A stretch of 64,000 nucleotides of DNA, taken from contig JACKGH010000001.1 of NCBI GenBank assembly GCA_020632075.1, positions 601,778-665,777 of the forward strand. The letters run 5' to 3'. The position numbers were made by a program, and so were the translations under genes. The notes beneath the pieces are model-generated. The model saw nothing but the letters and a program-made list of their open reading frames with translations, was not told the origin of the DNA and did not search any database. This stretch comes from Candidatus Nomurabacteria bacterium. Its GTDB lineage: Bacteria; Patescibacteriota; Minisyncoccia; Phycocordibacterales; UBA918. Shown here piece by piece: positions 2,028-41,889 of the stretch; position 1 is the first letter of the stretch; each line of letters starts with the position of its first letter.

Positions 2028-2975
2028 CTACTTCCAAGAAAATCCTCTTCCAAAGTGACCCCATGCCGCTGTATCGGCATAGATCGGTGCATCTAGTTGC
2101 AGGAATGAACGGATACCCGAAGGAGTCAGATCATACCCTTCCACTTGCTCAGGCACCCCATCGACGATCGCTACGGCCATGAGTGCTTCGGGATGTCCGA
2201 TCGCGTAGGCCAGCTTCACCAGCACAGCCTTGGCGTCCGGGTACTTCTCAAGATAATCGACCGCGATCCGGCGGGCCATGTAGGCGGCTGAGCGATCTAC
2301 TTTAGAAGGATCTTTACCGGAGAACGCTCCGCCGCCGACCGCCACCTCAGGTCCATAGTTGTCGACAATGATCTTGCGCCCAGTGAGTCCTGCGTCAGCG
2401 TCAAAACCACCCTGATTCCAATCCCCCGCTGGATTTACGTGATACTCCTTTACACCAGGTATCACTTCCTTAACAAGTTGTTCAAGATCGCTCTTTGGTG
2501 CGTTCTGAAAACTCGTTACTACGGACGTAACGTTACCCTCTTCATCGATCGTCACCTGCGTCTTACCATCGTACGGATATTTTTCGTAAACCTTCTGGCA
2601 TAGATTACGAGCGAGTTCATATTCCTTTGGCATGTACGTATCTGTCTCGCGAGTCGCGTAGCCAGTCATAATTCCCTGATCACCGGCGCCGCCAGTATCG
2701 ACCCCTTGCGCGATCTCTGGGCTCTGCGCCACGATATGAATATCGATCGTATGCCCCTCGCCCGCGATCTCTTTTACGATCTTGGTGACATTCACCTCAG
2801 TGGCGTTTGAAGTCACTTCTCCGGTCACCAGGATCTTCCCGTGCGAACCAACTGTCTCTACCGCTACGCGACTTTTTGGATCTTCGGTAAGGTACGCATC
2901 GAGGATCGCATCTGAGATCCGGTCACATAATTTATCTGGGTGTTTCGGTGACACACATTCGGCTGTCTTAAACAT
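2028..2975 (-). CDS. metK: S-adenosylmethionine synthetase (short form)
   Basis: SPKHPDKLCDRISDAILDA, GAGDQG and GGGAFSGKDPSKVDRSAAY motifs; 315 aa, i.e. a shortened MetK. Confidence 0.9.
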   Translation of the reverse strand: MFKTAECVSPKHPDKLCDRISDAILDAYLTEDPKSRVAVETVGSHGKILVTGEVTSNATEVNVTKIVKEIAGEGHTIDIHIVAQSPEIAQGVDTGGAGDQGIMTGYATRETDTYMPKEYELARNLCQKVYEKYPYDGKTQVTIDEEGNVTSVVTSFQNAPKSDLEQLVKEVIPGVKEYHVNPAGDWNQGGFDADAGLTGRKIIVDNYGPEVAVGGGAFSGKDPSKVDRSAAYMARRIAVDYLEKYPDAKAVLVKLAYAIGHPEALMAVAIVDGVPEQVEGYDLTPSGIRSFLQLDAPIYADTAAWGHFGRGFSWK

Positions 2976-3312
2976 AATTACACTTACTTAGTACTTGGTC
3001 AGACATTTTGGAATAAGTGAAATTCGCGGAACCAAGGAGTCTGAAGACGAGTCGTATATACATACGATGAGGCTTCAGACGACGTAGGTGACAAAGAAGT
3101 TCACTATTCCAAGATGGTCTGAAATAAAAAACACGCTCACATGAGCGTATCCAGGAGTCTTTTGCATCTGCCCTACACTGTAGGTTGAAGTTCGCACCGT
3201 TCTCGTGTGAGTGGTTGCGGACGGAGTCAGCGGGTCAAATCCCTCTTCCGTACTCTGGATACTTTCTATGAAATTGTGTTACTGCAGTATAACAGACACC
3301 GCGGCAGAAAAG

Positions 3313-8425: not shown

Positions 8426-8442
8426 TCAAGTGAAATTCTTTG

Positions 8443-8516
8443 TCCGCGCTCTAGGATTCGAACCTAGGGCCTTTCGAGTATCAGTCGAATGCTCTAGCCA
8501 ACTGAGCTAAGCGCGG
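8443..8516 (-). tRNA. tRNA-Ile (anticodon GAU)
   Basis: Reverse complement folds as CCGCGCT-TA-GCTCAGTTGGCTAGAGC-A-TTCGA-CTGATAC-TCGAA-AGGCC-CTAGG-TTCGAAT-CCTAG-AGCGCGG-A; CCA not encoded. Confidence 0.85.
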
Positions 8517-9418: not shown

Positions 9419-9628
9419 TGCTACGTTCATTTTCATACAATGTAACAAAAGGAGTTTATGTTCACTTTTGTCTTATCCTTTGGTTAGGTCTTTCCCTAAA
9501 GTCTAATACCAGTTTGGAGAATGAGTATTATGTCTCATTATGTGCTCAATTGAGGCACATAATACCGACCAATTAGCTGTCATTGTGAATGGGTCACCCC
9601 ACCACGACAACGTGTCCAATTGGAATTA

Positions 9629-11079
<1,451 letters not shown>

Positions 11080-29387: not shown

Positions 29388-32300
29388 TTAGGTCTCCTCA
29401 ACTCGACCTGGCGTCTCAACTGTAACCTGAGTGCTTCCCTTCGCTCCAGTCGTCGATTCGACACAATCGAGTGTATACGTACTCTTTGCAGTGATCGGAC
29501 CAGTCACAAGTGACCCGGTTGGACCGGACACACTCGGATCAAAATTATGTGTCGCGATCTGAGGTCCGTACAGCGAACAGGATATTGGGTATGATACTTT
29601 TGTGTCCCAGTGGATCGTTGCTTGATCACCACTTTTCACAAAGTCTTCGATGGTCAGGGTCATCGGTAATAGTGGTGCAGCGAGCTCGTTCGTGATCGTT
29701 ACAATATTATCCGTCTCATCTCCCTCTTCGATCTTATCAGTGCTATCGACATGCACAATGACTCGATACGGTCCAAACGGCACATCAATGGCAAGTAACT
29801 CATTTTGAGCTGGAGTATCACCAGTAGCAAGACCAGCAAAACTCGGATTCACTGTTGCATCAATGGTTCCATCATTCCCAAAATCTACATCAAGTTGGTT
29901 GATGAACGGACCAGCTGAACCTTCACCATCATTACGAACCACATAAGCAAGAGTAAGCGCGTGATAGGTACCAGTAGTAACATCAAACGCAGCTGATGGT
30001 GTCACACTACCGACGATAGGAAGCAAGTTTGGTGGCGTCATCGCACGAATTTGTACAGTTGCTGGTGCTGAGGTGCCGCCTGGTCCAGTACAGACGATCG
30101 TATAGGTCTGATCTGCGGTAATGTTGCTGATCATCTCACTACCAAGTGGTACAGCCTTACTTCCTGCCCAGTCACCACTGGCGGTACATTCAGTTACCGA
30201 TCCAGTAGTTGTCCAATCTAACGTGACATTCCCATGATATGGCACATCGATCGGCACAGTTGAACCATTAACAGTCAACGATACAGTTGGGGTTACATAC
30301 ACTGTGTAATCGAGATATGTCTGAGATCCTTCATACTGCACCGTAATACGTTCAGTCTCGGTTCCTGGAGCACCATTATCTCCGGTAACCTCCCAAAATG
30401 CACTGGCAGCATTTTGTAGTACATCAATTGCATCAGGACTATTGGAATCAGTCATTGATGTTGCAGGGTCAAGTGTGATATCAGGGTCCGAACAATCATG
30501 ATTGTCACCAAAATGAACCGTTAGATTTTCGACTTGTCCATTCATCAAATTTCTTGCCGCGATACTACCCGGACCTACTGCGATCGGCAGGTTTGTGTAG
30601 ATATCACAAACCGACACCAGACTTGAGTTTTCATCTGGATTGACCGTGATCGTTCGCGATGGACAATTAGTCGACCAAGCACCGGCCGTATCCTTTACTT
30701 TGTAGTACACAGTGTATACACCCGGAGTCAGTGCAGCCGTATCAAAACTTGAATCGCTGCCTGGTCCGTCACTATGCCACAAAGTTCCAGTTTCACACGA
30801 GGCGATTCCATTACCGACACGCCATTCGTGCTGCGCTATTCCGTTTACCGCATCATAGCCCATACCCTCAAAATGCACACTCGCCCCATCTGAAACCGTC
30901 ACTGCACCTGCCGGTTGCAGGATGAACGCCATCGGTGGCTCATTTAGAGGAGCATCACAAGTACCAGCAACTGCATTCCATGTGTATGCGTCCTGACAAC
31001 TAAATTCACATTTCGCTGTTGTATTTACAGCTGAATACACTTTTTGAGTATCAACCACAAGATCCAGCTGATCACTAACATACAAGACTGCATGCAGTGG
31101 GGTTATCCCGAGACATTGCGCTGTAGTGGCAGGAATACATCTCGCTCCATCCCACTCTTCGTCAGCCGCACATAAAGTCACCGAAACAGACCGCCAACCT
31201 GAAGTCAACGCACCATCATCCTGTGCTAAAACTTGAAAGGTCTTCACGCCACCGGTCAGCCACGCATGACTAGTTGGCAAATGCGTATCACTAGGAATAT
31301 ATCCAACACCTGGCAGCCACTCATCGACCACAGCGTCCATGTTCCAATCAATGCCATATCGAATCAGATCACCCGGGTCAGACGCAACGATCGTAAAGCG
31401 CTGCTGATCACCACTTAAATTACTATTACCACTATCTGGAGTAACCACTGGCACACTTGGCGCCGCGTTTGCTTCAACGCCAGCAGTTCGTACGGTATAC
31501 ACGATGGTTGTGGCAGGAATTGGATGCTGGTACGGCGTCCAACTATGACCACTGTCACCAAGAAGTAAACCAGAAATGGTTCCGGTATATCCAGTCAAGC
31601 TGACACCAGCTGGTTGTTCACTCATCGGAGTATTGTCCCAAGAGGTACGACAGATACCATCGATCCATTCATACTCATAGAAAAACTGCCCATAGGTTGC
31701 ATCAAAGTGAAATTCTGCAGTGACTGTTCCGGGTGACGTGATGCGATACACATTCCCGCCTTCTGGCGATAGTCCAGCAGTGGAACCACTGAGATCAAGA
31801 CTCATTTCTTCGGGATGAACCGACAGCGGCACGTATATGCCATACATGCCAGATACTAAACTTGCGCTACCGAGAAAGTACACCGGACTACAATCGCCGA
31901 TCTGCGTTTGAGCCAGGTTCACCACTGCCTTCTCTCCCCCATCAGGCCACGCCGCATCAGTTTGCCATACACCATACGGTGTATCCATCGCGTATCCCGT
32001 TCCATGCCAGGCTATCTCTCCACGAGCCGGTTCAAATCGTAAACGAGTACCGACCGGAACAGTACTATTATCAACCACCAATACACCCGTATCATGATCG
32101 TATACTGACGCCTCGTAAGTCACATTGACGTTTGGGTCCTCTAAACCTGGCACCCAGTTCAGAGTGCTCCCAAACTGAGTTGTCTGTCTATAGAACAGCA
32201 CACCATTGTACATACTGCTCACCACATCGCTTTTTCCAGCCGCAAGCACTGCCGTACCAGTCCACAGATAGCTGGCGGCAAAGAAGAATGCAACGAACCA

Positions 32301-33836
32301 CAGAAAGTGCGGCATACTACCGGTACCTGAGGTGTGCCGTTCATCGTCTTCATCAGCTTCAATGTGATTGAACTTCCTTCGCTGCAGTATAAGGAAAAGT
32401 ACAATGCCTACCGCCACTAAAACCAACAGTACTACAAAGATGCTTGCAATACTGATACCGCCATCTTCAGACAGAGTCGTGGCAGATGGGGCCATGCAAT
32501 TCCCGAGTGTTTTACAGTCATAGCGGACTGTTACCTCCTCTATCACCTCCCCTCCTTGCTTTAAAGTTGCAGAAAGTGTGAACGTGTCATACGCCTGCTT
32601 TGGAGTAAATATATCCGCAACAGCCATCATACTACCGGTGACATCTCCCTCATACTCATACTGATAAAATGGCATGTTGTTCGCACCGATCAATGTCAGG
32701 GTAAGTGTTACATCTTCAATTGTCGCTACCGTACCCGCTCCGTGTACACACGAGAACAAAACGGTTTCTTCTCCGGGTAGTAATGGAAATTCAGTGACAC
32801 TTGGAAAATTGATCCGTGGTACAGCTACGTTTTCACGCACAAATCGAACATTTATGACACTTTTAGTATCAATATATTTTGCTTCGGCGACCACCAAATA
32901 CACTGCACTGCTATTATCTGTGACCGTATGAGCAAGTTGTTGCGTGCTGTCAGTCGGAATGGTCACCATTTGTGTTTCTTGATGAACGATATTCTCTGAC
33001 CGCTGTTGATCCCACGCATAGGTGGTCCACGTCACTGGAATAGTCACTTCCTGACCCGTACTATTCTCAAGCATCGCCTTTACCACGATCGGTGATGATT
33101 GATCAACTTGCTTCGGTGCAGCAGTAAACTGATACGGTTCATTCGCTACCACCACCTCGTCCTTTTTAAATCCAACGTACCCCCCGATCTCACCAGCCAC
33201 CGCGAATGTTACTGAATTCCCGCCAACGTCATCGGTAAATGGCAGACCAAGTAAATTGAATCGCTTAGCACTTGAGAAGTAAAATACTGCTCGGTACTCT
33301 CCCGTCGCCAAACCAACCGGCACATTCCAGGTGAATGATGCTGGTACCGTTGCTTCAGCTGGAAGATCGATATCTTCTAGCACAAACCGCTGCTCTACCA
33401 CATCATACCCATTGAGCGGTCGCTCTCCAGATCTTGGTATCCGGAACACTTTCATGTAGACCGCGCCATCTATGATCGGATATGGATTCTCATTTTGGAT
33501 CGTGCCATGAAACGTCAGCGGAGCCCCATTTACGGTACTGCCCACTTGTGGAGAGAGGTCCACCTGCACCGAACCAAACGTGTAGTGATCAAAACAGGAT
33601 ACTGCACCATCTGGCAAGCCTACGATTGGACCAGCAAACAAACCAGGACCACCTGACGCAATGTATTCATCGGCTACGGTCTGTTCAGCCTCTGAGAGAC
33701 GTTCGTAATCTTCGACCGTCTCGATCTCAGTGACAAAATCAGGTGGCGCACTTCCCTGTTGCGCAAAGGACTGACTTGGCAAAAAAACCAAGACAAACAG
33801 GAACACTCCCATCCAATTTTTACCGATCGTATTCAT
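29388..33836 (-). CDS. giant cell-surface protein B (1482 aa): signal peptide, ectodomain, TM hairpin, large beta-rich ectodomain, C-terminal CARDB-like plus Ig-like module
   Basis: Signal peptide MNTIGKNWMGVFLFVLVFLPSQSFA; TM pair near aa 461-484 and 509-532; C-terminal ~200 aa homologous to the neighbour (NDGEGSAGPF ... VETPGRVEET). Confidence 0.8.
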   Translation of the reverse strand: MNTIGKNWMGVFLFVLVFLPSQSFAQQGSAPPDFVTEIETVEDYERLSEAEQTVADEYIASGGPGLFAGPIVGLPDGAVSCFDHYTFGSVQVDLSPQVGSTVNGAPLTFHGTIQNENPYPIIDGAVYMKVFRIPRSGERPLNGYDVVEQRFVLEDIDLPAEATVPASFTWNVPVGLATGEYRAVFYFSSAKRFNLLGLPFTDDVGGNSVTFAVAGEIGGYVGFKKDEVVVANEPYQFTAAPKQVDQSSPIVVKAMLENSTGQEVTIPVTWTTYAWDQQRSENIVHQETQMVTIPTDSTQQLAHTVTDNSSAVYLVVAEAKYIDTKSVINVRFVRENVAVPRINFPSVTEFPLLPGEETVLFSCVHGAGTVATIEDVTLTLTLIGANNMPFYQYEYEGDVTGSMMAVADIFTPKQAYDTFTLSATLKQGGEVIEEVTVRYDCKTLGNCMAPSATTLSEDGGISIASIFVVLLVLVAVGIVLFLILQRRKFNHIEADEDDERHTSGTGSMPHFLWFVAFFFAASYLWTGTAVLAAGKSDVVSSMYNGVLFYRQTTQFGSTLNWVPGLEDPNVNVTYEASVYDHDTGVLVVDNSTVPVGTRLRFEPARGEIAWHGTGYAMDTPYGVWQTDAAWPDGGEKAVVNLAQTQIGDCSPVYFLGSASLVSGMYGIYVPLSVHPEEMSLDLSGSTAGLSPEGGNVYRITSPGTVTAEFHFDATYGQFFYEYEWIDGICRTSWDNTPMSEQPAGVSLTGYTGTISGLLLGDSGHSWTPYQHPIPATTIVYTVRTAGVEANAAPSVPVVTPDSGNSNLSGDQQRFTIVASDPGDLIRYGIDWNMDAVVDEWLPGVGYIPSDTHLPTSHAWLTGGVKTFQVLAQDDGALTSGWRSVSVTLCAADEEWDGARCIPATTAQCLGITPLHAVLYVSDQLDLVVDTQKVYSAVNTTAKCEFSCQDAYTWNAVAGTCDAPLNEPPMAFILQPAGAVTVSDGASVHFEGMGYDAVNGIAQHEWRVGNGIASCETGTLWHSDGPGSDSSFDTAALTPGVYTVYYKVKDTAGAWSTNCPSRTITVNPDENSSLVSVCDIYTNLPIAVGPGSIAARNLMNGQVENLTVHFGDNHDCSDPDITLDPATSMTDSNSPDAIDVLQNAASAFWEVTGDNGAPGTETERITVQYEGSQTYLDYTVYVTPTVSLTVNGSTVPIDVPYHGNVTLDWTTTGSVTECTASGDWAGSKAVPLGSEMISNITADQTYTIVCTGPGGTSAPATVQIRAMTPPNLLPIVGSVTPSAAFDVTTGTYHALTLAYVVRNDGEGSAGPFINQLDVDFGNDGTIDATVNPSFAGLATGDTPAQNELLAIDVPFGPYRVIVHVDSTDKIEEGDETDNIVTITNELAAPLLPMTLTIEDFVKSGDQATIHWDTKVSYPISCSLYGPQIATHNFDPSVSGPTGSLVTGPITAKSTYTLDCVESTTGAKGSTQVTVETPGRVEET

Positions 33837-33927
33837 ATCTTATAGTTACTAACTGTAATATCATCATGATAGCAAGGAAACTAGTGTGTAGTGCTCTGAT
33901 TTGTAAACACGTGTAGACAGTTGCTTG

Positions 33928-33975
33928 CTCACAAAAACGCACCTGTTTGGGTGCGTTTTTGTGAGCAAATAATCT
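33928..33975. terminator. bidirectional terminator between the giant genes
   Basis: gctcacaaaaacgcacc-tgttt-ggtgcgtttttgtgagc, perfect 17-bp inverted repeat. Confidence 0.6.
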
Positions 33976-33980
33976 TTCGA

Positions 33981-36900
33981 TTAAGTTTCTTGGATGATTC
34001 CGGTTGTCTCAACGATCGCTGTGTCCTGGTAAACTGCGCCAGTAGTTGGCTCGGTGCAAGTTAATATGAATTCTGATTTTGCAATGACCGGACCGGTCGG
34101 AAGCTCACCAGTTGGGTTGATCGGGTTGCTCGGATCAAACGAATAGGTGGTAATGCCCGGACCAGCAACCTCACAGTCCATCGGGAACACTGCGTGTGTA
34201 TTCCAATCAAGCTTTGCAGGCAAACCAGCTTTAACTGTTTTTGGATTTATGTTCAATTCGATCCCCGGATTTGGGACTGGCACAACTGTATTTCGATACA
34301 CTATATTATCTGATTCGCCTGCAACACCTTCATCCACTTCATAATCTGAATCAACGGTGATCTTGACACTGTGCGTTCCAAATGGAACATCGGTTGCCAT
34401 GATCTCATTGAATGAACCTGTGTCTCCACCCCCACCTGACAATCCCGCAAATCCACCGAATGGACGCACCAATATATCATCAATAACCCCATCGTCACCA
34501 AAGTCTAACTCGAACTTCAACACGAAGTGACCTGCATCAGATTCGCCCTCATTTACGATACTGTAGCTGATAGAGAGATTGTCATACGTTCCTGTGACGG
34601 GATTGAAGGTAGCAGACGGTGTAAGGGCACTTACGCTAGGCACAAGATTAGGCTTTGTATTCACATTCACCACAACTGATTCAGTGATACTTGACCCATC
34701 ATCACCAACACAATCTAGCGTGAATGTTGTGTCAACCAAAACCACCTCAGTATCATCTCCACTTGGAGACACTGGAACTCCCCAGCTTCCAATACAACTA
34801 TCTACGTCAGTTGATGACCACTCCAAGTACACGCTATCACCCTCGGTAACAGTGATCGGACCATTCGAACCATCCGCGGTAAGTCCTAACGTCGGTGGTG
34901 GCGCCACCGGACCCGGGCCAGCTGCAGGATCAATGCAATTTGCACCATCGTAAACAAGATATGGTTCACACTCAGCTTCAACCACAACATAGTCTAGAGT
35001 GTTGCCTAGCAACCATGGACCAGTGGTCCCCCCACGGACACTCACTGTATTATCACCATGTGGCAAAGCACAATTTTTACTCAAGTTTGTATTCATTTGA
35101 TCACAGATTGTCGTGATCCCAGTATCAGCGTTTCGAACCGCTACAAACGGCCACAAAGCATTAGTTGTCCAAGTAAAGAGACTGTTACACGCACTCTCAC
35201 CTTCACCAATAAAACAACCAGCGCCATTGATGTTACCCCATGCAGCTGGCACTGGTGCACTTACCGTGATCGTCCTACTACACTGGACAATTCCTGAGGA
35301 ATACACCACTCGCAATACATAGTTTGTTGTTGATGGAGGGGTCACTGAATACGCATTGTGCTGGAGCGGAACCGCAACGCCATTGATAGTAGCCGAGACC
35401 GCACTTCCACCTGTAACGTCCCACAATAATGTGGTTGACTGTCCGGTCGTAATCGTCGCGTCTGAAGTATTGAGTGTACAAGCTGGCAACGCTACTGGCG
35501 GCGGAGGTGGCACTGAAACATCCTCACACTCACCATTGACAGCATTCCATACAGTACCAGCTACACAACTACCCGTTACCGCCACCGATGCAAGCACTGT
35601 CGAGTTGTCACGTGCTACAACCACGTTAGTACCATGTCCGATCGGTCGCAGCACATTGGTCATTGGGTTCATGAGCGGACCGCCATATGACCCATTGGTA
35701 GTTGAGTTCAACACATTTGCAAAACTTGCATTTTGAATATTCCAAGAGAACGTACCATTACAAGTGCCTTGATCAGCCTGAATAGTACAACCAGTACCGG
35801 TGATAGTAGCTGAAGGTGGCGCTATTACGTTAAAGTTAGTCGTGATTTGTCCACTGAAGTAAACTGGTGGCGGCAATGGATCCTCACAGTTGTACTGATA
35901 TCCAACAGTACCTCTCAAGATCTTTGACTTCACGCCAGGAGTACTGTATCCAGCGATACTTCTTACCACCAGTGAATTCGGAACCGGTACAGCTCCCAAG
36001 TACCCTCCGCCTGCCGGTCCCCAGATAGTATCGTACGTGACCGTCTCGGCTCGTTGTGCCTGCACATATGGCGCAATACGATCACCACAGTCAGGTGCGT
36101 ATGGAATGCTTTCACTAAAAGGGTTTGCTTGAGTTGTCACTGTAAGAGCCTCTCCCACATTGTACGTTCCTTTATTGAAACTGACAGTAAACGTCAGACC
36201 ATTTGATAAAGTTAAGGTTGCTGCATTGGTACGCTCTACTCCCACACCAAGGAGAACACCTCCAGCTACGATAATCGCAAAAGCGATGCTCATTAGTTCA
36301 GACGAGCCAACAGTACCACCCTGGTCATCAGGATCGTTGTGATCACTTCGCTTACTTTTTCGAATTGATGCAATGATCAATGCTGCAATCGTCAAAACAG
36401 CAAACAACACTACAATGAGCAGTAAGATAGCTTGCCCGGACATTTTTGGAGTAGCCTTAGTCGCTTGAGTTTCCATCATGCCACTCACATCCGTAAATAC
36501 TGGCGGCACATGACCAAACGAATCGGCCGCGAGTGTTTTCTCACCAGACCGAACCTGAACTCCTATCTGTGGATTTGCACAGGCTCCAGTGATCGGGACT
36601 GAGACTGTAGTTATGAACGCCTCTGCTCCGAGGTCAACAGCCTCTCCCGTTCCACACTGTGTTCCGGCTGTATCATAAATACTCACTGCAACAGACTGAC
36701 TCTCCTCGACTGTTGGTCGCGCAAACCAGGTCACGGTCACCGCAGCAGTATCACCTGCAGCATAGCTACCAGCATCGAGTGTGACATTCTGTACTCGACC
36801 GAGTTCATCACCAATGGTAAATCGAAATGGAATATCTGCAACCACCGGATCACCAGCCTCATCAACCAACACAAGAACTGATTCATACGAACCTGACTCT

Positions 36901-37628
36901 GCAGTTGTTGGCAAAGGAACAGAAACATATCCTATCTCATTTGAACCAAGAGTTGCTGAACCGAGTACCGCCGCATCAACACCCTCCACAACCGGACCAA
37001 GCAGCGTACCCTTATGTGTTTCGAAGTCGGTATACACTGTCGTCGTAGCACCTGAGTTTACTACCGTACATCTGATCGCTACAGACTCCTCACCGGAAAG
37101 ACGAGCGTCAGTGAGTGGTTCAAGCGTATCGCTGTCGCCCATGTACATCCCACAGTCTTGGACCACAACAGCACTACTTGTGCCTTCGAGCGTGACAACA
37201 CCAGCCATATTGGTAGCCAGCAACAAACCACTTGTGTTCTCAGCCACCACCCAAACTTCGTACTCACCAGAGAGAAAACCTGGCGCAGTGTAGTCAATCG
37301 AAACTGGCAACGTCTCATCAGCTCCGAGCCCAACGAGTCGATCCGCATATGACTGAGTATCGATCAGATACCGCTCATCATCGATCACTTGATACAGTTT
37401 AACTCCATACACGATACCCGGCTGCACCCCTTCCGCATTGTATAGATTGAAGAAAATAGTCATTTCAGACCCATTTTGAGCCATTATTTGAGCATCATAG
37501 ACTTCAGTGGTGGCGATAACGGTCATGTCCCCTGCCGGCTCGCCTGCAGACTGCGCTGACACAAACGTCGGCATGACCAGGAGCAACATCATCAAAAGAC
37601 CGGTTCGGATTCTACTAAAAAATAACAT
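33981..37628 (-). CDS. giant cell-surface protein A (1215 aa), paralog of B with the same architecture
   Basis: Signal peptide MLFFSRIRTGLLMMLLLVMPTFVSA; TM pair near aa 399-422 and 447-464; C-terminal module NEGESDAGHF ... IVETTGIIQET homologous to B. Confidence 0.8.
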   Translation of the reverse strand: MLFFSRIRTGLLMMLLLVMPTFVSAQSAGEPAGDMTVIATTEVYDAQIMAQNGSEMTIFFNLYNAEGVQPGIVYGVKLYQVIDDERYLIDTQSYADRLVGLGADETLPVSIDYTAPGFLSGEYEVWVVAENTSGLLLATNMAGVVTLEGTSSAVVVQDCGMYMGDSDTLEPLTDARLSGEESVAIRCTVVNSGATTTVYTDFETHKGTLLGPVVEGVDAAVLGSATLGSNEIGYVSVPLPTTAESGSYESVLVLVDEAGDPVVADIPFRFTIGDELGRVQNVTLDAGSYAAGDTAAVTVTWFARPTVEESQSVAVSIYDTAGTQCGTGEAVDLGAEAFITTVSVPITGACANPQIGVQVRSGEKTLAADSFGHVPPVFTDVSGMMETQATKATPKMSGQAILLLIVVLFAVLTIAALIIASIRKSKRSDHNDPDDQGGTVGSSELMSIAFAIIVAGGVLLGVGVERTNAATLTLSNGLTFTVSFNKGTYNVGEALTVTTQANPFSESIPYAPDCGDRIAPYVQAQRAETVTYDTIWGPAGGGYLGAVPVPNSLVVRSIAGYSTPGVKSKILRGTVGYQYNCEDPLPPPVYFSGQITTNFNVIAPPSATITGTGCTIQADQGTCNGTFSWNIQNASFANVLNSTTNGSYGGPLMNPMTNVLRPIGHGTNVVVARDNSTVLASVAVTGSCVAGTVWNAVNGECEDVSVPPPPPVALPACTLNTSDATITTGQSTTLLWDVTGGSAVSATINGVAVPLQHNAYSVTPPSTTNYVLRVVYSSGIVQCSRTITVSAPVPAAWGNINGAGCFIGEGESACNSLFTWTTNALWPFVAVRNADTGITTICDQMNTNLSKNCALPHGDNTVSVRGGTTGPWLLGNTLDYVVVEAECEPYLVYDGANCIDPAAGPGPVAPPPTLGLTADGSNGPITVTEGDSVYLEWSSTDVDSCIGSWGVPVSPSGDDTEVVLVDTTFTLDCVGDDGSSITESVVVNVNTKPNLVPSVSALTPSATFNPVTGTYDNLSISYSIVNEGESDAGHFVLKFELDFGDDGVIDDILVRPFGGFAGLSGGGGDTGSFNEIMATDVPFGTHSVKITVDSDYEVDEGVAGESDNIVYRNTVVPVPNPGIELNINPKTVKAGLPAKLDWNTHAVFPMDCEVAGPGITTYSFDPSNPINPTGELPTGPVIAKSEFILTCTEPTTGAVYQDTAIVETTGIIQET

Positions 37629-37732
37629 ATGGGTGGGTTTTAACTGCTTACAATATATGCACTATGATACCAAGCACTAGACAATAACAGACCAGACTTG
37701 TGAACAGTTTTGTACACCACAAATAATAAGAA

Positions 37733-37757
37733 AACCACCTTGCGGTGGTTTTCTCGT
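37733..37757 (-). terminator. terminator downstream of 5S rRNA
   Basis: aaaaccaccttgcggtggtttt hairpin with T/A runs. Confidence 0.6.
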
Positions 37758-37774
37758 AGGAATTAAATGCTTTA

Positions 37775-37882
37775 AGTTGGCGCCTACCTACTCTTCCGCT
37801 TGCGCAGTACCATCGGTGGTAGAAGACTTTACTTCCGTGTTCGGAATGAGAACGGGTGTACCCCTTCCCCCAAAGCACCAAC
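37775..37882 (-). rRNA. rrf: 5S ribosomal RNA
   Basis: Reverse complement contains CCGTTCTCATTCCGAACACGGAAGTAAAG...CCGATGGTACTG...GAAGAGTAGGTAGGCGCCAACTT with a helix I pairing of the ends. Confidence 0.85.
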
Positions 37883-37961
37883 TTAAAAGATTCAATTCAG
37901 ATCGTTGCTACGGTCGTGTGAAATGGCTCCCTGACCAAAGAACAAATGAGAGCCAGAGAAG

Positions 37962-38094
37962 TGGACGGGGTAAGAGGAATCGAACCCCCGACCCCTGGCT
38001 CCATGAGCCAGTGCTCTACCGGCGAATCACCAGCATTGCTTTGTCGAGCGGCGCCTCACAACAAAGCACCAGCGATTCTCTGAGCTATACCCCG
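37962..38094 (-). tRNA. tRNA-like gene with 57-nt insertion in the D-loop and atypical anticodon loop (UCAUGGA); function/identity unclear, possibly pseudo-tRNA or processing element
   Basis: CGGGGTA-TA-GCTCAG[57-nt insert]CCGGTAGAGC-A-CTGGC-TCATGGA-GCCAG-GGGTC-GGGGG-TTCGATT-CCTCT-TACCCCG-T-CCA; perfect 7-bp acceptor stem and encoded CCA; lies between 23S and 5S. Confidence 0.5.
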
Positions 38095-38199
38095 AGAAAA
38101 CCATTTCACACGATCGTATACGCATATTCAATTTTGGTAACTTCCTTCACTCAAATCTATACATGATGTACAGCGTTCCCTATGGGAAACCACGTCCAA

Positions 38200-41445
<3,246 letters not shown>

Positions 41446-41889
41446 ACACCGCTGTATAGATTTTGAGTGATGTCCGCGTTCTCACGCGGACGATGTTTTT
41501 GTCTATCGGGGACGAAAAGACCCGAGCGGTTGCTCTGTTGTCTTAACCCGATAGACGGTTACCTGCTCTGCATGAAAGGCTTGCGACTTTCATGCAGAAC
41601 TTGCCTACCGGGCGTCGATTCCACGGTAGGACTTTTCGAAGACAGATCTTATCAATCTGTCTTCTTGAATATGCGATTGTCAACGATCGCGTACCCCCTT
41701 GAATTTTGGAAGAAAAAAGCCGCGGTAGTCGCGGCAAGAAAATCACGAGTGACTTGCTTGCTACGACGTGGCGTTTTCTCCAAACTTCATAAATACGTGA
41801 CCGCTATCTTATACGAATTAAAAATAAAGTCAAGCATCTACTCTGGATATTTTGATGGATTTATCCTCTGCTCTATCAACAGTGTTTTC

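Follow-up and report, generated by a model that had tools for sequence, protein, structure and literature searches.

The spacer between the 23S and 5S ribosomal RNA (rRNA) genes in a 64,000-nucleotide (nt) stretch of a Candidatus Nomurabacteria contig (JACKGH010000001.1; hereafter the window, to which all positions refer) harbors a 133-nt transfer RNA (tRNA)-like element, which lies on the minus strand together with the rRNA genes. The explanation favored here, with moderate confidence for the whole of it and its processing role included, is that the element represents a former tRNA-Pro(UGG) of the 23S-5S spacer in Candidatus Kaiserbacteria and their relatives of the Candidate Phyla Radiation (CPR), turned into a tRNA-like module of the precursor rRNA (pre-rRNA). 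The covariation among related loci shows that selection acts only on the top half of the element, made up of a 7-base-pair (bp) acceptor stem stacked on a T stem of 5 bp, together with the T loop and N73-CCA, and on an 18-bp flanking helix, referred to as the clamp helix; the D/anticodon half can vary freely, and each relative has a differently remodelled version of it. The parts of the locus, in the direction of transcription, are the following.

38177..41436, minus strand: 23S rRNA gene, 3260 nt (Rfam LSU_rRNA_bacteria, 2412.6 bits)
38121..38162, minus strand: 23S 3' trailer, carrying the 3' strands of the 23S processing stem (complementarity read from the sequence and by RNAduplex)
38101..38118, minus strand: 5' strand of the clamp helix, TACGATCGTGTGAAATGG (17 of its 18 positions pair with 37926..37909)
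37962..38094, minus strand: tRNA-like element, 133 nt (cloverleaf by sequence, folding and covariation)
38094..38088 with 37972..37966, minus strand: acceptor stem CGGGGTA / TACCCCG (from sequence)
within 37962..38094, minus strand: D stem GCTC / GAGC (from sequence)
38023..38079, minus strand: 57-nt hairpin between D-loop nucleotides 15 and 16 (from sequence and folding)
37995..38011, minus strand: anticodon arm CTGGC-TCATGGA-GCCAG (from sequence)
within 37962..38094, minus strand: variable loop GGGTC (from sequence)
37973..37989, minus strand: T arm GGGGG-TTCGATT-CCTCT (from sequence)
37965 and 37964..37962, minus strand: U73 and CCA (from sequence)
37927..37961, minus strand: segment linking the CCA end to the 3' strand of the clamp helix, with a weak hairpin (minimum-energy spacer fold)
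37909..37926, minus strand: 3' strand of the clamp helix, CCATTTCACACGACCGTA (spacer fold and covariation)
37775..37882, minus strand: 5S rRNA, short 108-nt form (Rfam 5S_rRNA, 72.9 bits)
37728..37755, minus strand: intrinsic terminator 3' of the 5S, the sole terminator-like minus-strand site from the 23S 3' end to the next gene

Related loci were obtained through a protein query with the product of a spurious plus-strand open reading frame (ORF; 37777..38166) that lies antisense to the 5S and the element; its "homologues" were predicted metagenome proteins, and the contigs encoding them were fetched. The resulting set comprises ten 23S-5S loci, nine of them distinct (L187 is the same as L189), all resembling Ca. 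Kaiserbacteria of the CPR. In all ten, the 23S-5S spacer contains a single tRNA-like unit or a pair of them, at the same place as in the window, which is the comparison with related genomes that an earlier sequence-only reading of the element had proposed, and loss of the unit was seen in none of the 11 loci examined. Since homologous elements occupy the same place in related genomes, the element is judged not to be a product of chance. Other searches were less productive: a scan of genome contigs for the odd anticodon loop plus T loop returned two chance matches in coding DNA and no RNA family match, a scan of metagenome contigs for a T loop 90–150 nt upstream of a 5S core gave, among the matches listed, unrelated tRNA-Glu, tRNA-Lys and tRNA-Met genes followed by 5S and none like the window spacer, and the adjacent 1215-amino-acid (aa) CARDB protein, used as a query, yielded 2 homologues, too few for finding relatives. 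The units carried by the relatives are diverse.

L183 (closest relative): uninterrupted unit, ARAGORN tRNA-Pro(UGG), loop CUUGGGG, A73-CCA (Rfam, 53.3 bits)
L177: 8-nt anticodon loop
L184: degenerate 73-nt unit with a 6-nt T loop
L187, unit 1: perfect D arm TAGCTCAGCCTGGTAGAGCA and 35-nt anticodon arm
L187, unit 2: 6-nt anticodon loop and variable region of about 60 nt
L178/L179 and L186: units of 120–140 nt in which the acceptor and T arm alone are recognisable
L190: two units, the second with about 50 nt inserted in its anticodon loop
L181: 8-nt anticodon loop and long variable arm
L182 and L185: nothing but a minihelix of 11–12 bp followed by N-CCA

Insertions of 20–60 nt in the relatives lie in the anticodon or variable region, anticodons are not conserved, and only 2 of about 14 units (that of L183 and the first unit of L180) appear capable of decoding. 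The 5S genes next to these units are 82–97% identical to the window 5S, which indicates that the lower half evolves far faster than its surroundings.

The top half and the clamp helix exhibit the opposite pattern. Across 12 related units, 92.4% of the cells of the acceptor and T stems are paired and double-sided changes are observed in 11 of the 12 pairs; the pairing and covariation scores were reached by no shuffle, the double-change count by 1 of 500, and slid controls are paired at 43–54%. Similarly, the 18 bp of the clamp helix are 97.2% paired over 10 loci, with double-sided changes at 12 of 18 pairs, values attained by none of 500 shuffles (slid controls, 30–42%); the two strands were anchored on their invariant TGG and CCA/CTA ends and not by complementarity. 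N-CCA is encoded by every spacer unit, and most units have CGG...CCG-A-CCA ends. The hairpin between the CCA end and the 3' clamp strand is strong in the relatives and weak in the window. The combination of a conserved acceptor/T mimic with a dispensable D/anticodon half, located inside a precursor between two mature RNAs, is the one expected of a tRNA-like processing element of the t-element or Haloferax 5S type.

The clamp strand may have a second partner. Leader positions 41664..41690 (ACGCGATCGT...CGCATATTCAAG) are complementary to the trailer segment TTGAATATGCG and, in the clamp strand, to its 5' half (ACGATCGTGT), within 38109..38131, and similar complementarity was seen in L177. Two partners are thus available to the clamp strand, the local one and the leader far upstream, and the arrangement may be a device for alternative pairing or for ordering in pre-rRNA folding. 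A second clamp-enclosed unit, with a different conserved helix of its own (AATTGTGTGTAGTGG / CTACTACACACAATT), was observed in L178 (spacer about 472–546) and as unit 2 of L187; that of L178 is called tRNA-Asp(GTC) by ARAGORN, yet has A33 and U73, and is likely another non-decoding unit that annotation would mis-name.

The element is embedded in a single transcription unit. In the trailer, GTATAGATTTGAGTG (38162..38148) and TTGAATATGCG (38131..38121) are complementary to the leader at 41469..41454 and 41675..41664, respectively, by sequence reading and RNAduplex, and the GAATATGC / GCATATTC processing-stem pair recurs in L177. In the minimum-energy fold of the spacer, AGGGAG of the segment 37927..37961 pairs with UUUUCU of the 5' leader, and 5S helix I, as read from the sequence, is prolonged into its flanks by pairing of CTTTTAAG with CTTAAAG. 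The distance from the 23S end to the element is 82 nt and from the element to the 5S start 79 nt. Neither a promoter-like nor a terminator-like site was found on the minus strand of the 23S-to-5S interval, and the 23S, the tRNA-like element and the 5S are shown to lie on one strand, uninterrupted by a promoter or terminator. The whole 294-nt spacer is 100% identical in the metagenome contigs L004 and L005, and L002 and L003, which hold 262 and 222 nt of it, likewise match at 100%, the insert included. Because the locus is 100% identical in these four independent metagenome assemblies, the element is a real sequence and an assembly artefact is ruled out. In L004 (1..667), the sequence upstream of window position 38274, in the 23S 3' domain, is unrelated to the window 23S and carries a 258-aa ORF; a chimeric assembly at the rRNA, or else a strain in which the junction differs, would account for this divergent part.

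The element (38094..37962) reads CGGGGTA-TA-GCTC-AG-[57 nt]-CCGGTA-GAGC-A-CTGGC-TCATGGA-GCCAG-GGGTC-GGGGG-TTCGATT-CCTCT-TACCCCG-T-CCA. The sequence-only reading had described it as a cloverleaf with encoded CCA between 23S and 5S, with an anticodon loop UCAUGGA, C33 and anticodon AUG, and all of these sequence statements are correct. The tRNA tertiary core is complete (U8, A14, G15-C48, G18, G19, A21, T54, T55, C56 and A58), and the cloverleaf with the insert hairpin has a folding energy of −57.1 kcal/mol against −59.1 kcal/mol for the unconstrained minimum, a gap of 2 kcal/mol. In the Rfam and ARAGORN check advised in that reading, the native 133-nt element was not called by ARAGORN and matches the Rfam tRNA model partially (17.3 bits, threshold 29), whereas the 76-nt sequence left after deletion of the insert is accepted by ARAGORN as a tRNA with anticodon ATG. 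Decoding tRNA genes are contiguous, span 70–95 nt and are recognised by detectors, and their products combine a 7-nt anticodon loop, U33 and a purine at position 37 with an anticodon in bacterial use; the element departs from both descriptions. Moreover, its loop positions 32/38 and 33/37 are complementary, so that a perfect 7-bp stem with an AUG triloop is possible, with pair probabilities of 0.64–0.93 across all seven pairs; this closable anticodon arm and the clamp helix had not been noted before. Transfer-messenger RNA (tmRNA) was also considered as an identity and rejected, as neither ARAGORN nor Rfam finds one in the window.

Descent from tRNA-Pro is suggested by the closest relative, whose uninterrupted unit sits in the same clamp helix and the same gene neighborhood (a VWA gene) as the window element. 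The two units have in common C1-G72, the CGGGGTR acceptor and G36-G37 in the loop, and C1-G72 with A73, the combination found in most spacer units, is a signature associated with bacterial tRNA-Pro. From the variable loop through the T arm, 20 of 22 positions agree with E. coli proM; full-length comparison with E. coli tRNAs is not discriminating (identity of 69.7% with proM and 72.4% with hisR). A tRNA-His origin, which the ARAGORN label "His(atg)" would imply, was rejected, since G-1/C73 is missing and the orthologue is a tRNA-Pro. The decoding features that have been lost are U33, replaced by C33, a usable anticodon, replaced by AUG, and the open anticodon loop, now closable to a 7-bp stem. 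Of the three explanations raised by the sequence-only reading, a tRNA-like processing structure agrees with the compensatory retention of the acceptor/T half, the N-CCA and the enclosing helix, and a decaying tRNA gene agrees with the intact tRNA-Pro(UGG) of L183 and the lost decoding features, so that the two appear as sides of one history; the third, a mini-intron or other excised element, is not supported, with no bulge-helix-bulge, no intron or ribozyme match and the insertions of the relatives located elsewhere.

The insert itself was confirmed as a precise 57-nt D-loop insertion at 38079..38023, with a boundary that can be moved by 1 nt as a G flanks both sides. Alone it folds, as had been proposed, into an imperfect hairpin of 18–19 bp (−25.7 kcal/mol, z = −3.35 against shuffles), and the GCTGGTG previously described as a direct repeat is present and represents the two G.U-rich strands of the lower part of this hairpin. 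A canonical D arm is indeed restored by its removal; without the insert, the window D arm differs by just one T from the D arm of L187 unit 1. The insert is present once in the window, nothing similar was found in any fetched related locus, and the homologous units of L183, L177, L184 and L187 do not have it. A mobile repeated mini-element was rejected on account of this single window copy and the lack of copies in the fetched loci, and the insert is best read as a species-specific hairpin outgrowth, one among the many remodellings that the lower half has undergone independently. Known splicing routes were likewise rejected. Group I and group II tRNA introns are at least 200 nt long, have a catalytic core and usually lie in the anticodon loop, and 57 nt in a D loop is far below the size of self-splicing introns of either group; Rfam ribozyme and intron families gave no match in 37700..38300 even at E ≤ 10; and the bulge-helix-bulge of introns spliced in the archaeal manner is absent from the junctions because both face each other at the base of one hairpin, in a host that is a bacterium.

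The hairpin would project from the solvent-exposed 15/16 pocket of the D loop and leave the tertiary core in place; because all tertiary-core nucleotides are intact, the L-shape and its elbow could still form, with the hairpin pointing outward, as expected from general tRNA structure. It would either be kept in the RNA or clipped, but not spliced, and has a length sufficient for a possible double-strand nuclease site; in the fetched relatives there is no sign that the hairpin itself is selected. The 10-mer TGGTGCTTTG is common to the insert (38062..38071) and the 5' end of the 5S (37871..37880), with a chance of about 1% by rough estimate for this one 5S gene, and the insert loop AGGCGCC also occurs at the 5S 3' end; the shared 10-mer may be a coincidence or a clue to the source of the insert DNA. 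Single tRNA-shaped genes with matching acceptor halves were also observed in four IMG/VR viral contigs, L014 (2326..2438, plus), L025 (8123..8223, minus), L034 (5567..5686, minus) and L044 (982..1099, plus), all with a D-loop insertion of 50–69 nt at the same place (after TAGCTCAG), and with the insert deleted ARAGORN finds an abnormal 6-nt anticodon loop in three of the four. Non-decoding tRNA-like genes with an expanded D loop may therefore be more widespread than this lineage.

As the top half, the CCA and the enclosing helix are strictly conserved, the lower half drifts and the position in the 23S-5S transcript is constant, the pattern is as expected for a tRNA gene recruited to be recognised by enzymes that read the acceptor/T-arm domain alone, with RNase P and the tRNA 3'-end nucleases as the obvious candidates. 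Recognition by these enzymes would rest on the top half; RNase P would cut at 38094/38095, 3' trimming or cleavage would fall at or past the CCA (37962), and the trailer of the 23S would thereby be detached from the leader of the 5S. The clamp helix would hold the fold of the module apart from the rRNA flanks and may itself be the site of a double-strand-specific nuclease.

Several points weigh against this processing role. Cleavage at the element by RNase P or a 3'-end enzyme is predicted from its sequence, and cuts there cannot directly make mature rRNA ends, because they would fall 82 nt past the 23S and 79 nt before the 5S. A clamp of 18–24 bp could by itself separate 23S from 5S through a double-strand nuclease, in which case the conserved top half would be left unexplained by processing. 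The covariation sets were assembled by hand from 10–12 units, and these may not all have the same tRNA as ancestor. For the RNase Z of some bacteria, a CCA present in the gene is an anti-determinant. Pairing of a 5' leader with sequence 3' of the acceptor is reported to hinder RNase P binding (PMC9433436), and two thirds of CPR RNase P RNAs reportedly lack the CCA-binding UGG motif (PMC8172020).

Among the alternatives, a stable, non-decoding 133-nt tRNA-like RNA with a CCA end, released from the pre-rRNA one-to-one with the rRNA and performing a job of its own, such as binding a tRNA-recognising protein, non-ribosomal aminoacylation or joining the ribosome, is considered doubtful. It would agree with the clamp enclosing the unit as the processing stems enclose 16S and 23S, with the full tertiary core of the window element, with the strong selection on the top half and with N-CCA being encoded by all units, though not by the one genuine tRNA of the window, tRNA-Ile(GAU) (8516..8442); on the other hand, the bare minihelix of L182 and L185 and the replacement of the whole core in L178 and L186 mean that the acceptor/T minihelix alone could underlie any such function, and prolyl-tRNA synthetase would no longer find its identity elements in the anticodon. 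The more specific proposal that the clamp-enclosed RNA is a stable product, one-to-one with 23S and 5S, which acts via its acceptor/T minihelix and CCA as an extra structural RNA of the reduced CPR ribosome or as a dedicated ligand of a tRNA-binding enzyme, appears highly unlikely; mitochondrial ribosomes, which adopted a tRNA encoded between their rRNA genes, offer an analogy for a structural RNA, and if such a product existed, the variable lower half with its 57-nt hairpin would represent a lineage-specific expansion segment.

A functionless tRNA-Pro pseudogene, with a random hairpin insertion and passively carried in the spacer, is distinctly unlikely. The non-functional anticodon loop (C33, AUG), the confinement of the insertion to this species and the decay-like differences of the lower half from relative to relative point in its direction, but decay should not keep the acceptor and T stems through double changes, nor the N-CCA and the clamp helix where the rest is unrecognisable, and the unit is never lost from the loci examined. 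Finally, a real tRNA gene with a short D-loop intron, excised and ligated to a functional 76-nt tRNA, is exceedingly unlikely: deletion of exactly 57 nt restores the D arm and an accepted cloverleaf, the 23S of the same organism holds a probable small group I intron and CPR tRNA genes are reported with group I introns (PMC8172020), but the size of the insert, the missing intron and ribozyme matches, the junctions and the bacterial host all speak against it, the product would have C33 and an AUG anticodon unused in standard bacterial tRNA sets, and the homologous units are without a consistent anticodon and have their insertions elsewhere. The conversion of a spacer tRNA-Pro into a pre-rRNA module remains the preferred explanation.

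The rRNA genes of the window are unlinked, with the 16S (9619..11078) located 27 kb from the 23S-5S pair (37775..41436), and the 1.1 kb that separate the 16S from tRNA-Ile(GAU) (8442..8516), which is located downstream of it, contain small ORFs and terminator-like hairpins. Proteins identical to RecA and SecD of the window are named Candidatus Kaiserbacteria bacterium at NCBI. A 5S of 105–110 nt is of the Parcubacteria type (PMC9297842), and the unlinked rRNA genes, the short 5S and the 23S insertion fit the CPR. Insertions in the 23S relative to E. coli rrlH are the following.

39133..39364, minus strand: 232-nt insertion at E. coli position ~1931 (against E. coli rrlH)
41124..41222, minus strand: 99-nt domain I insertion, resembling an extended hairpin (against E. 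coli rrlH)
41005..41058, minus strand: 54-nt domain I insertion (against E. coli rrlH)

The 232-nt insertion matches the group I intron model over its full length, though weakly (14.4 bits, E 0.25), and is probably a small ORF-less group I intron; a clear group I intron was found in the 23S of L185 (50.9 bits) and a LAGLIDADG ORF in that of L186. The domain I insertions may be expansion segments or, alternatively, intervening sequences that are excised. The 5S is immediately followed by two giant ORFs with CARDB domains (1215 and 1482 aa; window 29388..37628), which are absent in L177, L183 and L184, where the 5S is followed by a VWA-domain gene, or by an aminotransferase gene and then VWA; they look like a recent insertion of surface-protein genes beside the rRNA locus. 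A short metK-like gene (2028..2975; 315 aa) has an S-adenosylmethionine (SAM) riboswitch upstream of it (3161..3265, minus strand, 55.7 bits).

The clamp helix, the tRNA top half and the CCA would together provide a concrete conserved module for rRNA maturation in CPR bacteria, with their unlinked, intron-rich rRNA genes and reduced ribonuclease set. The related loci also present a series from spacer tRNA to minihelix signal, running from an intact tRNA-Pro through altered anticodon loops and large insertions to a bare 12-bp minihelix. As tRNA finders miss such units or mis-name them ("His(atg)", "Asp(gtc)" with A33, "???"), they can distort tRNA inventories and genetic-code inferences.

Among the nearest known systems are the spacer tRNA genes of bacterial rRNA operons, such as tRNA-Ile and tRNA-Ala between 16S and 23S. 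In a few CPR genomes, tRNAs between 23S and 5S have been noted at the level of annotation (PMC8172020). As in spacer tRNAs, a tRNA-shaped unit is co-transcribed with rRNA and an RNase P cut would help to split the precursor, and the unit of L183 still looks like an intact tRNA-Pro(UGG); unlike them, the window element occupies the 23S-5S spacer, no longer has U33 or an anticodon fit for use, and carries a 57-nt D-loop hairpin and an 18-bp helix of its own, and the units of its relatives shrink down to a minihelix. In the archaeon Haloferax volcanii, tRNase Z cleaves a tRNA-like structure located 5' of the 5S (Hoelzle et al. 2008, cited in PMC5627344). This is similarly a tRNA mimic of the 23S-5S spacer thought to recruit a tRNA-end nuclease for rRNA maturation, but an archaeal one that abuts the 5S so that the cut makes a mature end. 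The window element, by comparison, is a bacterial one with an encoded CCA, and 79 nt separate its end from the 5S.

In animal mitochondria, transcripts are punctuated by tRNAs. In plant mitochondria, t-elements are described (PMC1920247). The resemblance to both lies in degenerate tRNA-like folds, chiefly acceptor plus T arm, that serve as RNase P/Z signals in polycistronic transcripts; these, unlike the element, are organellar, stand beside mRNAs and have neither an enclosing helix nor an encoded CCA. Non-canonical tRNA introns of Archaea, including those at D-loop positions, are removed via a bulge-helix-bulge; a short D-loop insertion whose removal restores the cloverleaf is shared with them, whereas the window element has no such motif, is bacterial and would yield a non-decoding tRNA. 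Bacterial RNase P also accepts hairpin (minihelix-type) substrates other than tRNA, for example the precursor of 4.5S RNA, and the units of L182 and L185, reduced to a hairpin with N-CCA, have this minimal RNase P shape; those substrates are precursors of functional RNAs, whereas the hairpin here lies in an rRNA spacer. No description of a degenerate, helix-enclosed tRNA-like family of the 23S-5S spacer was found in the literature searched.

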